IMG/VR virus record: IMGVR_UViG_3300010222_000171
Location: 4,817 to 68,816 of that record
Strand: one strand, 5' to 3'
DNA length: 64,000 bases
From: a virus
Under the pieces are notes generated by a model, which saw only the letters and a program-made list of their open reading frames with translations, was not told the DNA's origin and searched no databases. The translations under genes were made by a program, and so were the position numbers. Of the stretch, positions 52,401 through 61,519 are shown one piece after another. Every line of letters starts with the position of its first letter. Within the stretch, counting starts at the first letter, position 1.

Positions 52401-52667
52401 ATGACACATTCAGATTACTATAGCTCAAAGAACCGGAATCAAGAACAGGAAATGAAAGAAATGCGAAGGATCGCCGCCGTTCTCGATGATTTCGTAGTGA
52501 AGTTCGATTTCAGAGGACTAACAGTAGAGCGAAGCGGCGACTCAATCCGAGTTCGGTCGAAGGACGGTAATGTTCTCGGCGGTTCAATGCTTATGGAATC
52601 TGCCTCAGTCTTGGAAATTTTCGATTGGCTCGAAAACAAAGCAGAATACTACGGTGACAACCAATGA
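52401..52667 (+). CDS. hypothetical protein
   Basis: Coupled ORF. Confidence 0.65.
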   Translation: MTHSDYYSSKNRNQEQEMKEMRRIAAVLDDFVVKFDFRGLTVERSGDSIRVRSKDGNVLGGSMLMESASVLEIFDWLENKAEYYGDNQ

Positions 52668-53152
52668 CAGATTTCGACAACTTCGACAGCAGAATCGTGT
52701 ACGACATGGAAGGGTGGATGCAAGAAAAGGTCGACACCGACCAGTTCACCAGAGCTACCGAAGCGACAGTGAAAACGAAAGCTAATCTGGTATATGATGA
52801 AGTGCTTCGGACAAACATCATTAACCTGGACGGGTTCCTTCATGGAACCTGGAGTGAACGAATCACCAACGAAATTGATCTCGGTAATAGGAAAACATTC
52901 GTCATAGACTTCAGAGAAGTAACGGCTAACCTTGATCTCCGAACCGATGAGCTGGTCAAAGCGGCAGAATCGAGGGCTGCCGAAGATAATAGCAAAGCTG
53001 CCTACGTGTTAGGGAACTGGGTTTACATTGCAAGGAAAGCAGATCACATACCTTCGGCACTTGCTATCGAAACTGCCTTCGAGCGAGTCAGTCAGCAACC
53101 CGATCAGCCTGACGATGCGACTAACGAAGAGCTCGGTGGGGGAAAGTATTAG
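52664..53152 (+). CDS. hypothetical protein
   Basis: Acidic ORF with ATGA overlap. Confidence 0.75.
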   Translation: MTDFDNFDSRIVYDMEGWMQEKVDTDQFTRATEATVKTKANLVYDEVLRTNIINLDGFLHGTWSERITNEIDLGNRKTFVIDFREVTANLDLRTDELVKAAESRAAEDNSKAAYVLGNWVYIARKADHIPSALAIETAFERVSQQPDQPDDATNEELGGGKY

Positions 53153-53156
53153 AAAA

Positions 53157-53741
53157 ATGGGAATCGACCTAAGCGAAACCATCGAAGCCGAGTGTAACGA
53201 CACTGAAAACACATCAAACGAAGCCCCGACTTTCGGTGATGAAATGTCATCGAAAGAGCTACAAGAGGCTTGTAGAGAGTATGCAGAGTGGGCTGTCGAA
53301 GCCTACGACACATTCGATGAGGCGGAGTTAGAAACAGTGACGGTCCAAGTTTCAAAGAGGCTGAAGCGCGCTGCTGGAAAGGCTGGCAAATCACAAAACG
53401 CCCCGACGCAGTTCTTCATGCGATTTGCTTGGAAAGCATACCAAAAATGGGGATGGGGGCGGCAATTCGAGGAAACAATTCGGCACGAACTTATTCACAT
53501 CAAGCAATACCAACAAACGGGAAGTGGGGGTCACGGCCCCGATTTCCGTCTCATGGCTGACGAAGTTGATGCCCCACGGCATTGTAGTCAGTTCCATGTA
53601 CACAAATACGGGATTTTCTGCTCAGAGTGTGACGATATGGTCACTGGACGCTTTCAGGAATGTAAAATGACCCGAAACCCGGAAAAGACAAGTAAAATCT
53701 CGAAGTGCTGTGGCGCTGACCTCTACTCGAAGGAACTTTAG
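53157..53741 (+). CDS. SprT-like zinc metalloprotease with zinc ribbon
   Basis: TIRHELIH (HExxH), GHGPDF and CSECDD...KCCG. Confidence 0.85.
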   Translation: MGIDLSETIEAECNDTENTSNEAPTFGDEMSSKELQEACREYAEWAVEAYDTFDEAELETVTVQVSKRLKRAAGKAGKSQNAPTQFFMRFAWKAYQKWGWGRQFEETIRHELIHIKQYQQTGSGGHGPDFRLMADEVDAPRHCSQFHVHKYGIFCSECDDMVTGRFQECKMTRNPEKTSKISKCCGADLYSKEL

Positions 53742-53753
53742 AACGAAGGCAAA

Positions 53754-53778
53754 GACTTATTATTCCAGGGATTAAGTC
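53754..53778 (+). promoter_or_regulatory. dyad promoter motif copy upstream of hammerhead A
   Basis: GACTTAT-N11-TTAAGTC. Confidence 0.7.
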
Positions 53779-53784
53779 TTAGAA

Positions 53785-53879
53785 TGGGCGAAAGGCTCTT
53801 GCTTGGAGCCTCGGATCGAGCTGGCCGCCGATCCCGCGAAGGCCCCTTATCGGTTTGGGGTCGGATGATGCCCATGGCC
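53785..53879 (+). ncRNA. type II hammerhead ribozyme A, variant core with inserted hairpin
   Basis: Stem II TGGGC/GCCCA, GAAA, stem III GGCTC/GAGCC, UC site at 53811-12, stem I GGATCG/CGATCC, core C-[insert]-GATGA and a pseudoknot. Confidence 0.6.
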
Positions 53880-53913
53880 CCAGAATGGGACGCAACCTAA
53901 CGGGGAAACAAAA

Positions 53914-54150
53914 ATGAACCAAGAACTACCAGAGAATTTCGGAACTATCGAAAAATCAGATGGAGTGTCAGAGATTACACCCTACATGGGATCATACGCC
54001 GATTTCAGCATCATAATGCGTCGGCCCATGAAGACTGAGATCAGGGTGTACTATCTTCGGAACCTCCGAGAAGACTGGGAATGGGTCGAAGATAGGTACG
54101 ACAAAGAACACGAAGAGGGGTTCATCCTGTTGAAGCGGAAGGCGAACTAA
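53914..54150 (+). CDS. hypothetical protein
   Basis: First ORF after hammerhead A. Confidence 0.7.
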   Translation: MNQELPENFGTIEKSDGVSEITPYMGSYADFSIIMRRPMKTEIRVYYLRNLREDWEWVEDRYDKEHEEGFILLKRKAN

Positions 54151-55246: not shown

Positions 55247-55372
55247 ATGAATGAACCAATTGATTACCTCACATTCGAGGAACGGCGCGAAGTTCGGAAC
55301 GCACAGCGCACCATTGCGGCAATGGTGAATCCAACGATGCAGGATGCGGTCAAACTCGTCAACAATGAGTGA
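55247..55372 (+). CDS. 41-aa microprotein
   Basis: Starts at the promoter motif and overlaps the GHKL gene start. Confidence 0.55.
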   Translation: MNEPIDYLTFEERREVRNAQRTIAAMVNPTMQDAVKLVNNE

Positions 55373-58193
55373 AAAAATACAGAAACTCGCAACGGTCGAA
55401 CAGGACTCAGATATTGTACAAGAAGATGATTGGAGCGAAGCCCCGGTTATCAATAACACTGGGAACGCAACTGTTCGTGACTTCGATGCAGCAAGCGAAG
55501 ATCATCCCCTGGTCCAGTATGCCGGAGAGAAGGCACGGAAGACGGACATCTCCGGTGGTGGAGAGTTCGTTTCCGAAGAAATCTACCAGGGCGACGAAGC
55601 GTTCCCAAGAGAGTGGCTACAGAATCACGAAACGGCCTGCATCCGGCGCTGTAAGATGGTCGTTTCACTAAGTGACGAGTATCCCGACGATTGGCTGACT
55701 CAGACCGTCCTCATGGACCCCGAAACGGGTGAGACGGTCGAAGACCCCGAAGATGTAGATGGCAATGCGGCAGCGATGGAAGTACCCCGCCCAATGAACG
55801 AGATCATCGAGGCTGCCCGAAGCCTCGGCTACGATCCGACGATCACTTGGGACGTGTATCTTGACGAGCGGAAAATCATTACCGAAGACAACGGGATCGG
55901 AATGACTCCCAGGGAATTTTGGGAAGTGTTCAAGTCCCCCTTCAGCTCCGGTTCTGGTGTGGATTCTGAAACTGGGGGGAACTTCGGAATCGGCTCTAAC
56001 TCCGTCGAGAAGGCTCATGGAGAAGACGGTGCTGCGAAGGTCACGACGAAAACCCCCCGGCCCGGAAACCACGAAGGTTATCAGGCATATTCATACCGGG
56101 GAGGGGCAACGGCAATTAATGGCGAAGTCCCTGATGGGTTCCACGGAACCCGTTTCGAGATTCCCGTTCGTGAAGGGTTCGACCTGTCCAAGATGCAGCA
56201 TTGGATAGAAAAGTACACCGACAAGCTCCGCGTTCCGGTGTTGTATCGAGAACACGATGCTGGTTCAACGCCGGTCGAAGAAGAATACGAAGAAACGGTT
56301 TTCGTTAAAGACTTCGATGATCCGCCTATTGTCATCGAACGGCCCGGCGAGTTCAGCTTAGTTGCCGGCCCTGATGTGTGTCCCCGAACCAGCTTCCGTG
56401 AACCGGACAATACTAATACCTATTTGGTGTCAATGGAGATTGACCGAAACACGAAGGCGTCCATCTCGACGATGTACGATGTCGTGATCCAGATTCACGA
56501 CGAACAAGGCCGGATCGTGGCAGGCCCTCATCGGGGCTACCATTCCCATAACGGCAAGGTCTACAAGACAGGACAGAACGAAAAACTACTCGACGATCTC
56601 CACGAAGATGACGTTGTATCGCCACAGCCTACTGGAGATCGTGACAGGCTGAAGAAAACCGACGAAAGCTACGACTTTTTCAATTATATTGAAAAGATCG
56701 TCAAGTCGGAAGAGATCAATCAGGTATCTCATGTTGCGGATCGTATGAAGGATGCTGACCACCCCGGCGATGCGATTCGGGGCGAAAAGGGTGACTGGGA
56801 CCTGTTCAGAAAGACCATTAGTGAGAATGGACCAAGACACGCCACTGACCAAAGGAATAGGTTTGGGAATTTTCTAAATGACAGAGATGAGTTCCCCGAC
56901 TTTACTGATAGTGAAATTGATAAAATGTTTTGCCTGTTCGATGAGTTCGAACACTGCTATCAGGGACCCGGTAGTTCCAATCGGAAACGGGGGAGAGAAG
57001 AAAGGACTATTGGTTATATCTTGTCAAGCCTCGATCCCGACGCGATTTACATGGCCGCTTCTACTGGTGGCAACTTTAGTGATAGGTTCCGGGTTATCGA
57101 AAACACATACGATAACCCCGAAGTGGTCGTCATTAACACCGCCAGCAACTACGACACTTACGCCGAAAACTTCGGCTTCAAAGTGCTAAAAGAAGTCCCA
57201 GTGACCCAACCCGATGAGGGCGAGGACCATGACTACAATGTTACAGATAATATTCACGAACGTCATGTGAATAAGGGAAGTAGCTACCAATCAAAGCCTG
57301 ACAGTGTTCTGGATCGGGCACTGAAAATTAGAAACAGTGCCGATAACACGAGTATCGACCTTCGACTTAGCATTGCTGATGCTCAGGAACGGCTGGAAAA
57401 TTATAGTAGCTTCAGCGGTGCTAATTCAAAGAAACTCGTCCTGTTCCCGAGAACTGCTGACGAGAACATCAGCGACCACTACGGAATGGCAAAGTACGCG
57501 GCCATCGCTTCGGTGAACAAGAAAGAGTACGACCAGTTGGCTCACTATGACAATGTAATGACGTACCAGGAGTTCAAAGAGTGGTCACGGTCGGCGCTGA
57601 TTGCCACTACTGACGGGGTAATGACGCCGAAAAAGCTTGTCGAGGATGATCGGATGGTAGTCCTTCTGTACCGGAGGCGTTGTCGGAGTGGCCCCATCGA
57701 GAAAGATGAAGCTCGGTTCCTAATGGACGAGAAAGAAGACCTTCGGAACCTTTACTTGGAAGATATTCGAGATCAAGTACACTGGGCTGATCATCTCGAC
57801 GGCTACGATGGTGGTTGGGACGGCGACGACCGAGGCAACGTTGACGATGCCGATAAGCCCGATATGTTGTTAGCTGTAGCTGGTCCGAAGGTGCTGCGCC
57901 GTGCACACTGGGCTATCCATCAGTTGGACATATCCCGCCGAAGTATCGAAGGTCTTCGGTTGGGGAGAAATCGTATAAAAGAATTACCGATCACGTGGGG
58001 CACTCTCGATGGGTCCCAAAGTAAGTACAAGCTCATGGTTGACACCCCGAACTGGGACAACGACAGTGAAATTTACGAGATGATCCCGACGAACCGCGAC
58101 AAGTTCAAGGCTCAGATGTATTTGGCATTCCATGACATGGGCATCGATCCATCGAACTACGAGAACGAAGAGCTTCGAGAGATGTGTTCCTAA
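55365..58193 (+). CDS. large GHKL (Hsp90/MORC-like) ATPase protein, rIIA-like
   Basis: REWLQN, EDNGIGM, GNFGIG and GTRF GHKL motifs in the N-terminal third. Confidence 0.85.
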   Translation: MSEKIQKLATVEQDSDIVQEDDWSEAPVINNTGNATVRDFDAASEDHPLVQYAGEKARKTDISGGGEFVSEEIYQGDEAFPREWLQNHETACIRRCKMVVSLSDEYPDDWLTQTVLMDPETGETVEDPEDVDGNAAAMEVPRPMNEIIEAARSLGYDPTITWDVYLDERKIITEDNGIGMTPREFWEVFKSPFSSGSGVDSETGGNFGIGSNSVEKAHGEDGAAKVTTKTPRPGNHEGYQAYSYRGGATAINGEVPDGFHGTRFEIPVREGFDLSKMQHWIEKYTDKLRVPVLYREHDAGSTPVEEEYEETVFVKDFDDPPIVIERPGEFSLVAGPDVCPRTSFREPDNTNTYLVSMEIDRNTKASISTMYDVVIQIHDEQGRIVAGPHRGYHSHNGKVYKTGQNEKLLDDLHEDDVVSPQPTGDRDRLKKTDESYDFFNYIEKIVKSEEINQVSHVADRMKDADHPGDAIRGEKGDWDLFRKTISENGPRHATDQRNRFGNFLNDRDEFPDFTDSEIDKMFCLFDEFEHCYQGPGSSNRKRGREERTIGYILSSLDPDAIYMAASTGGNFSDRFRVIENTYDNPEVVVINTASNYDTYAENFGFKVLKEVPVTQPDEGEDHDYNVTDNIHERHVNKGSSYQSKPDSVLDRALKIRNSADNTSIDLRLSIADAQERLENYSSFSGANSKKLVLFPRTADENISDHYGMAKYAAIASVNKKEYDQLAHYDNVMTYQEFKEWSRSALIATTDGVMTPKKLVEDDRMVVLLYRRRCRSGPIEKDEARFLMDEKEDLRNLYLEDIRDQVHWADHLDGYDGGWDGDDRGNVDDADKPDMLLAVAGPKVLRRAHWAIHQLDISRRSIEGLRLGRNRIKELPITWGTLDGSQSKYKLMVDTPNWDNDSEIYEMIPTNRDKFKAQMYLAFHDMGIDPSNYENEELREMCS

Positions 58194-60075: not shown

Positions 60076-60099
60076 GACTCGTATTCGTTAGGTTGCGTC
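60076..60099 (+). promoter_or_regulatory. dyad promoter motif copy upstream of hammerhead C
   Basis: GACTCGT-N10-TTGCGTC. Confidence 0.65.
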
Positions 60100-60108
60100 T
60101 TTTGAAGC

Positions 60109-60178
60109 GGGCGAAACGCCGGGGATTCCCGGCGTCGGGAGCGAGATGGTCGCCGTTCCCCTGATGCTGCCCATGACT
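60109..60178 (+). ncRNA. type II hammerhead ribozyme C
   Basis: GGGC GAAA CGCCGGG-gatt-CCCGGCG TC GGGAGCG-loop-CGTTCCC CTGATGC T GCCC. Pseudoknot GGTCG/TGACT. Confidence 0.75.
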
Positions 60179-60211
60179 GCGGTGCGGGCTTGGGATGCAA
60201 CCTAATCACAA

Positions 60212-61356: not shown

Positions 61357-61381
61357 GATTTAAGTTTGCAGAATCCGAGTC
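61357..61381 (+). promoter_or_regulatory. dyad promoter motif copy upstream of hammerhead B
   Basis: GATTTAA-N11-CCGAGTC. Confidence 0.65.
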
Positions 61382-61388
61382 TTAGTAA

Positions 61389-61497
61389 TGGGCGAAAGGC
61401 TGTATCATAATCCTCAACTCTTATTTAAATGAGTTGTGTCCTGTGTTACAGTCTCAGTTCGGGAGTAGCCATCCGAATCCTGAAGATGCCCACGGCT
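61389..61497 (+). ncRNA. type II hammerhead ribozyme B with a 42-nt stem III insert
   Basis: TGGGC GAAA GGCTGTA...TACAGTC TC A-GTTCGG-loop-CCGAAT-C CTGAAGA T GCCCA. Pseudoknot AGCC/GGCT. Confidence 0.8.
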
Positions 61498-61519
61498 CCA
61501 CGGGAAATCAACAATAACT

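Follow-up and report, generated by a model that had tools for sequence, protein, structure and literature searches.

The window analysed here is a 64,000 nt stretch of a 72-kb IMG/VR record (IMGVR_UViG_3300010222_000171), which was assembled from a rock/halite metagenome and belongs to a virus known from metagenomes only. A gap of 172 nt separates two plus-strand genes of the window, a SprT-like ORF (Pfam PF10263) ending at 53741 and a 78-aa ORF starting at 53914. Within this gap, sequence reading of 53784–53881 showed all the parts of a type II hammerhead ribozyme, present and in order; this element is called copy A below, and two sibling hammerheads of the same window are called B and C. Copy A is preceded on the plus strand by a dyad, GACTTA...TAAGTC, with a TTATTA TATA-like core (53754–53780), which was recognised by sequence reading and is a putative promoter. 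It is followed by a conserved leader, GGGACGCAACCUAA..., that runs into the start codon of the 78-aa ORF (53885–53916, plus strand), and related leaders (GGGACACAACCUUCCGA) stand behind the hammerheads of related viruses. From the end of copy A to the ATG at 53914 there are 34 nt.

Further downstream, the window encodes a 949-aa protein (55344–58193) with 37–38% amino acid identity to the protein of HSTV-2, HRTV-7, HRTV-2, HRTV-11, and HCTV-6. According to the database records, these are haloarchaeal tailed viruses (Hafunaviridae, Mincapvirus), and the kinship of this HSP90-like protein indicates that the source of the window is a virus of extreme halophiles. The 949-aa protein itself gave no Pfam match at the default threshold, and the GenBank label in the cultured relatives is "HSP90 chaperone protein".

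The hammerhead is the best-studied small ribozyme, and its CUGA turn has been treated as fixed; motif searches, like permutation models, take the strand to be unbroken. Copy A lies entirely on the plus strand and opens with the 5′ strand of stem II, AUGGGC (53784–53789), which pairs with 53870–53875 at a pair probability of 0.78 and whose GGGC/GCCC portion is kept in the family. The core nucleotides G12-A13-A14 (53790–53792) follow and form, together with A15.1, the sequence GAAA (53790–53793), invariant in 15 of 15 hammerheads tabulated from six related genomes. Stem III is a hairpin of 7 bp with the 5-nt loop UGCUU (53793–53811), closed by the A15.1-U16.1 pair (A53793-U53811) and recognised from the RNAfold structure and from covariation. 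C17 is C53812, and by its position in the hammerhead consensus self-cleavage is predicted between C53812 and G53813. Stem I (53813–53834) consists of GGAUCG (53813–53818) and CGAUCC (53829–53834) around the 10-nt loop AGCUGGCCGC, in agreement with both the fold and the family comparison. The GGCC of this loop (53823–53826) is complementary to the GGCC of the 3′ tail (53876–53879), a pseudoknot that was read from the sequence and from family comparison.

The strand after stem I is where copy A departs from the usual layout. C3 (C53835) and position 4 (G53836), both assigned by comparison with the tabulated relatives, are followed by an inserted module (53837–53863) made of CGAA (53837–53840), a hairpin designated stem IV (GGCCCC, 53841–53846, with GGGGUC, 53857–53862, and the loop UUAUCGGUUU), and a single G (53863). 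The core then resumes with G5-A6-U7-G8-A9 (GAUGA, 53864–53868), followed by an extra U (53869) that is typical of this virus group, the 3′ strand of stem II, GCCCAU (53870–53875), and the pseudoknot tail (53876–53879). Thus C3, G5, A6, G8, and A9 are all there in order between stems I and II, with 28 nt between C3 (53835) and G5 (53864) that fold into a hairpin. The contiguous CUGANGA of a three-way junction is absent, the 27-nt module splitting the strand. A preliminary description of this DNA had read the core, the hairpin, the GAAA, the UC site, the stems, and the pseudoknot in the same way, and every one of these statements was correct.

The minimum-free-energy fold of copy A obtained with RNAfold was a four-way junction, in which the pairs of stem IV had probabilities of 0.90–0.94. 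The folding energy of copy A was ordinary for its G+C content (z = −0.43). Only the window copy contains GGCC(CC) three times, which allows competing helices; these showed up both in the centroid fold and when the copy was aligned to the covariance model. The near-isoenergetic competing pairings, again found in the window copy only, were between GGGC (53786–53789) and GCCC (53842–53845), between GGGGUC (53857–53862) and the tail GGCCCC (53876–53881), and between CCGAUCCC (53828–53835) and GGGGUCGG (53857–53864).

Homologues carrying the insert were searched for in IMG/VR with loose DNA patterns followed by stem filters. Among the matches listed, only the window element and one element each in two other genomes of haloarchaeal viruses, G001 and G002, survived, and stricter patterns on viral contigs returned the same three elements. 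G001 is 73 kb long with terminal repeats and is 100% complete; G002 is 63 kb long and 90% complete. Both carry a common interruption of the form C-N-CGAA-(hairpin)-G-GANGA. The window reads C-G-CGAA-GGCCCC-UUAUCGGUUU-GGGGUC-G-GAUGA-U-GCCC, G001 continues after stem I with C-U-CGAA-GACACCG-GUG-CGGUGUC-G-GAUGA-U-GCCC, and G002 continues after stem I with C-U-CGAA-GACGG-UUCACCA-CCGUC-G-GAAGA-U-GCCC. The module measures 22–27 nt and its stem IV 5–7 bp, and the loops (10, 3, and 7 nt in the window, G001, and G002, respectively) are unrelated in sequence. The CGAA and G flanks and the basal G-C pair were invariant in the window, G001, and G002.

Stem IV was compared pair by pair, counted from its base and given in the order window, G001, G002. 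The first pair is G-C in all three, the second is G.U, A-U, and A-U, and the third is C-G throughout; the fourth is C-G, A-U, and G-C, and the fifth C-G, C-G, and G-C. Two pairs had thus changed on both sides with pairing kept, in a set of three sequences that is too small for statistics. All three elements fold into a four-way junction, with stem IV probabilities of 0.9–1.0 over the pairs listed. C3, G5, A6, G8, A9, G12-A14, A15.1-U16.1, and C17 were invariant across the window, G001, and G002. The preliminary description had suggested a new four-way-junction variant and had called for homologues with the same insertion point and a different hairpin sequence. Two such homologues were found, G001 and G002, and the interruption they share, together with the four-way minimum-free-energy fold, bears the suggestion out. 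Because two related viruses keep the same layout, copy A is, judged by this sequence comparison, a conserved four-helix hammerhead and a selected variant, not a broken copy.

The exact position of the module can be read from the homologues. A U follows C3 in both G001 and G002, which places the module (27 nt in the window: CGAA, hairpin, and G, 53837–53863) between position 4 and G5. The window copy has G at position 4, where both insert-bearing homologues and 12 of 12 tabulated relatives without the insert have U. The earlier claim that the hairpin replaces U4 was therefore right in one part only: the U4 of the uridine turn is indeed absent from the window copy, where position 4 is G53836, but the homologues keep U4 and the insert follows position 4. 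An alternative register, which takes G5-A6 from the CGAA and places the hairpin at N7, was also considered. Relative to G003, a related virus with a plain core at the same locus, it needs two indels instead of one and leaves the conserved GANGA unexplained, and for these reasons the single-indel reading was preferred.

Two other readings of the module were rejected. A K-turn formed by the GAA bulge was dismissed on inspection, the opposite strand being without G-A pairs. A nested second hammerhead, in which CGAA and stem IV would act as a G block, would have G as its cleavage nucleotide, and no second CUGANGA is present.

The three insert-bearing hammerheads are syntenic, lying upstream of the HSP90-like gene in all three viruses. 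Homologues of the window genes at 52401–53152 precede the insert-bearing hammerhead where they are detectable; they were not detectable in G002. The HSP90-like proteins of G001 and G002 are 65% and 39% identical to that of the window, respectively, and in the tree of this protein both deep clades, to either side of the deepest split, include insert-bearing viruses. Two related viruses have a hammerhead without the insert at the same locus. In G003, stem I and its loop are identical to those of G001 over 24 nt and the core is a plain CUGACGA, and in G004 the hammerhead is canonical. The identity of the G003 and G001 stem I, combined with the plain core of G003, indicates that the module is a discrete unit whose precise absence leaves a normal core. 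As far as these sequences tell, the presence of the module is maintained through extensive sequence turnover.

To place copy A among its relatives, an alignment of the HSP90-like protein was used as search probe, and five related virus genomes were taken whole, making six with the window virus. A structural scan of the six genomes gave 15 clear type II hammerheads, 3 with the insert and 12 without. They share the frame (G)GGC-GAAA, stem III, U-H, stem I of 6–7 bp, C-U-GANGA, and a 3′ strand of stem II that is mostly GCCC. The stem I loop has 10 nt in all but one of the 15 copies, and the extra U after A9 was present in all of them except two in G004. In 15 of 15, a 4-nt tail pairs with positions 5–8 of loop I. 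Seven loop I/tail combinations occur among the 15, namely GGCC/GGCC, AGCC/GGCU, CGCC/GGCG, GGUC/GACC, GGUC/GACU, AGUC/GACU, and GGAC/GUCC.

A covariance model was then built from six canonical copies of the related viruses, with no window copy included. All three window copies were recovered with it, B scoring 59.6 bits, C 47.9 bits, and copy A, over 53784–53881, 21.7 bits with an E of about 7e-4. In the family alignment, which comprises 16 distinct sequences fitted to the model, 98.4% of cells were paired and 11 of 17 pairs had changed on both sides. The covariation score of this model-fitted alignment was reached by none of 500 shuffles, and slid registers dropped to about 50% paired. Changes on both sides were found, in the same model-fitted alignment, at 5 of 6 pairs of stem III and 6 of 7 pairs of stem I; stem II had changed on one side only. 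The copy A family thus has the type II architecture, with stem II open, together with helix covariation and the loop I/tail pseudoknot.

Standard annotation performed differently on this group. With the Rfam type II model RF02276, copy A was reported in the window neither at the gathering score nor at E<=10. Sibling B was the only match in the window at E<=10 (60109–60175, 31.1 bits vs the gathering score of 37), C being unreported as well, and the four matches in G003–G005 (28–33 bits) were all under the gathering score of 37. The hammerhead of halovirus HF2 reached 41.1 bits with the same model, above the gathering score. Since the family hammerheads are all under the Rfam gathering score or unreported, standard annotation would miss the whole group.

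That copy A is the product of simple decay or chance resemblance, a hammerhead copy that received a random insertion and is now drifting, would agree with the blindness of Rfam to it and with a folding energy that is ordinary for its composition. We consider this highly improbable, however, given that the module and its flanks occupy one locus in three viruses, with both deep clades represented, and show compensatory changes, and that the family model gives copy A an E of about 7e-4 despite the insert. The preliminary description had tied simple decay to inactivity under all conditions together with a lack of any homologue preserving the insertion; as to the latter, two homologues do preserve it, and the catalytic nucleotides are invariant save position 4.

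Several other members of the family deviate from the consensus. Sibling B (window 60106–60180) has perfect stems and pseudoknot and the core CUGAUGC, in which A9 is replaced by C. The presumed counterpart of B in G001 (G001:C1, near 31087, minus strand) reads CUGACG-U-GCCC, with A9 missing or replaced, and also has perfect stems and pseudoknot. Sibling C (window 61386–61499) keeps a canonical CUGAAGA; its stem III is about 45 nt longer and contains an inner hairpin, and stem I has an A-C mismatch at its base. Its loop I, GAGUAGCCAU, is also found in hammerheads of G001 (27206) and G003 (59850), there with a short stem III. In G005, a family member at L421:11027–11095 (22.8 bits, model R1) reads C-A-U-GAAGA, with one nucleotide inserted between C3 and U4, and its stem II is very weak.

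Insertions close to C3 have been described before in hypersaline viruses. Perreault et al. (2011) reported three saltern viral-DNA hammerheads, including that of haloviruses HF1/HF2, with 2-nt insertions next to C3 (PMC3088659). One of them, HHmeta, was nearly inactive at ordinary Mg2+, with orders of magnitude of activity lost, and needed 75 mM Mg2+ or more; its rate was about 0.13 per min at 300 mM Mg2+ (PMC3088659). In HF2, the early transcript has a 5′ end that was mapped within 3 nt of the predicted cut (PMC3088659). Like copy A, HHmeta and HHphage are type II hammerheads with a loop I/3′ tail pseudoknot, come from viruses of extreme halophiles, and sit in a 5′ leader with a start codon a short distance downstream. 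Their CUGANGA strand, too, is extended by nucleotides on the side of stem I, HF2 reading C-UGUU-GACGA after stem I. The insertions themselves differ: those of HHmeta and HHphage are 2 nt long (2a and 2b, before C3) and unstructured, whereas those of the copy A family are 22–27 nt long, form a helix with CGAA and G flanks, and come after position 4. Considered together, the L421 copy and HF2 (C-UGUU-GACGA) suggest that the C3-G5 segment may be an insertion hot spot in halovirus hammerheads.

Compared with canonical type II hammerheads (Rfam RF02276, clan CL00010), copy A has the same order of elements and all catalytic nucleotides except position 4; it differs in its split core strand, in the G at position 4, and in the additional U that follows A9 ahead of stem II. 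The copy A family clearly descends from type II hammerheads. A second kind of departure from the three-way junction is known from the non-circularly permuted hammerheads SGC, CSG, and GCS of Eckert et al. (2023), in which the core blocks, including CUGANGA, were assumed uninterruptible (PMC10085705). These share with copy A an altered connectivity relative to the three-way junction, the retention of core nucleotides, and an additional helix. However, they reorder whole blocks, whereas copy A has the classic type II order and it is the C block itself that is interrupted. A full-text search of the literature gave no description of a hairpin inside the hammerhead CUGANGA strand.

In a deep mutational scan, single and double mutants of the CUGA turn all had low activity except the C:G swap (C3:G8) (PMC9901934). 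The family could therefore also be viewed as a conserved leader structure that is dead or nearly so, a four-helix RNA kept for stability, protein binding, or translation control. The strongly deleterious effect of CUGA-turn insertions and substitutions in standard assays (PMC3088659, PMC9901934) and the G at position 4 of the window copy agree with such a role, as do the A9-to-C or A9-less copies at corresponding positions in two viruses, which suggest that a full core is not always required. Cores that are expected to be weak (window B and G001:31087) are tolerated in this virus group, so conservation need not mean fast cleavage. A role in structure alone, however, leaves unexplained why G5, A6, G8, A9, G12-A14, and C17 never vary among three viruses in which every stem has changed in sequence, and why the docking pseudoknot between stems I and II is kept up by compensatory changes. 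The invariant catalytic nucleotides and this pseudoknot would be difficult to account for if catalysis were no longer under selection, and we regard a dead or near-dead leader as unlikely. On balance, copy A is probably functional and belongs to a subfamily of type II hammerheads in Hafunaviridae-related haloarchaeal tailed viruses, with a conserved module between position 4 and G5.

The surroundings of the family hammerheads point to a common transcript context. A dyad of the form AAGACTYAAC...GTCTT, again promoter-like, precedes the hammerhead within about 10 nt in all 10 copies whose flanks were compared and in window copies B and C. In the window the promoter-like motifs are at 53754–53780, 60076–60100, and 61357–61381, and in the relatives they occur in L418–L421 and L425. 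The conserved leader GGGACACAACCUUCCGA followed by a start codon stands behind most family hammerheads. By their sequence context, the ribozymes appear to lie at the very 5′ end of transcripts.

Copy A would accordingly be transcribed from the adjoining promoter-like motif, whose TTATTA lies about 25 nt before 53784, and would come to stand at or near the 5′ end of a transcript for a block of small early-type genes. In the nascent RNA, stems I–IV and the loop I/tail pseudoknot may form co-transcriptionally, after which the RNA would be cut behind C53812. The predicted products are a 5′ piece of about 29 nt and a message with a 5′-OH end, 101 nt ahead of the ATG, whose first structures would be the hairpins of stems I and IV. 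The uridine turn is the point of backbone reversal in the hammerhead core. Stem IV is proposed to leave the core at this turn, which would geometrically be the least disruptive site for an insertion, the three-way junction becoming a four-way one through CGAA, a hairpin of 5–7 bp whose first pair is G-C, and G. With a helix leaving at the uridine turn, the core would depend less on which nucleotide occupies position 4, and this would fit G53836. If it behaves like HHmeta, copy A with its distorted core should require the very high Mg2+/K+ levels found in the haloarchaeal cytoplasm, so cutting would be slower than in the canonical siblings, or salt-dependent. There is perhaps an even chance that copy A is an active four-way junction with a helical exit in place of the uridine turn, the fourth arm with its conserved GAA bulge taking over or tuning the job of U4. 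It is possible that the invariant GAA bulge engages in a tertiary or protein contact.

The module could, on the other hand, gate the ribozyme, with stem IV or the GAA bulge sensing a ligand, a protein, or an RNA and switching cleavage in the manner of an aptazyme. Its place is one from which the formation of the active site could be controlled, its CGAA...G flanks are invariant, and the window copy has near-isoenergetic competing folds. However, these competing helices are absent in G001 and G002, the loops, of 10, 3, and 7 nt, are wholly different, and plain Watson–Crick pairing makes up the stems, which have no conserved internal loop except GAA. Moreover, when the duplexes between insert and leader were compared with those of shuffled inserts, the fractions of shuffles at least as stable were 0.10, 0.79, and 0.48. 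With unconserved loops and no shared alternative pairing, an arm that binds ligand or RNA is not supported, and we regard gating as quite improbable. The switchable arm put forward in the preliminary description lacks support on the same grounds: unrelated loops, a leader pairing no better than in shuffles, and competing helices that are not conserved. The working four-helix hammerhead remains the reading that we prefer.

Further carriers of the module were sought by several routes. Single neighbouring proteins used as search anchors led to one distant locus only, which was without a hammerhead, and the HSP90-like protein alignment searched against genome contigs gave nothing relevant. Loose patterns in viral, metagenome, and genome collections gave matches that, among those listed, were almost all due to chance; stricter patterns on genome contigs gave four matches, located in bacterial genomes and taken for chance. 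Among the matches listed for 401 haloarchaeal genomes, none was hammerhead-like by eye. A look for transcripts likewise gave nothing, as no RNA run was among those listed for this DNA, and the contigs of two other halite runs end before the insert. No convincing family member was seen in the cultured Mincapviruses HSTV-2, HRTV-7, HRTV-2, HRTV-11, and HCTV-6, and blastn against cultured phages returned none; with both searches empty, no cultured virus with the variant was found.

If the proposed reading of copy A is true, a CUGANGA strand thought of as uninterruptible can host a helix, and the 5′ end of a halovirus early transcript would carry a processing switch tuned by salt or Mg2+. A conserved helix at the turn would change the descriptors used in hammerhead searches, Rfam at present missing copy A and leaving those canonical relatives that it reports under the gathering threshold. 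The family would provide a natural four-way-junction hammerhead in which the contributions of U4 and of the turn can be probed, and would build on the finding of 2011 that the hammerhead core is relaxed in hypersaline viruses. For the engineering of ribozyme switches, it would provide a new point of attachment. With a ribozyme directly behind a promoter-like motif, the role of genomic hammerheads, a long-standing question, would become testable in a defined transcript.

The module was also compared with the GCGAAA-stem III-UCGGAU segment of its own ribozyme. In the window, the alignment of 53836–53866 with 53788–53816 scored 11, compared with −2.8 ± 2.4 for shuffles. The global alignment of module and own segment beat 500 of 500 shuffles in the window and 99% in G002; it did not do so in G001. 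This likeness of the module to the ribozyme's own C-GAAA-stem III-UC-G unit hints that the module may have arisen when part of the ribozyme was duplicated or when neighbouring hammerheads recombined.

Clustered hammerheads with similar ends were also seen in another IMG/VR record, L045 (IMGVR_UViG_3300046517_001446, minus strand). It contains three canonical type II hammerheads within 800 nt, at about 588, 909, and 1329 of the reverse complement. Their ends, GGGCGAAAC...CUGAUGAUGCCCAU, are as in the halovirus family, and their stem I loops are short.
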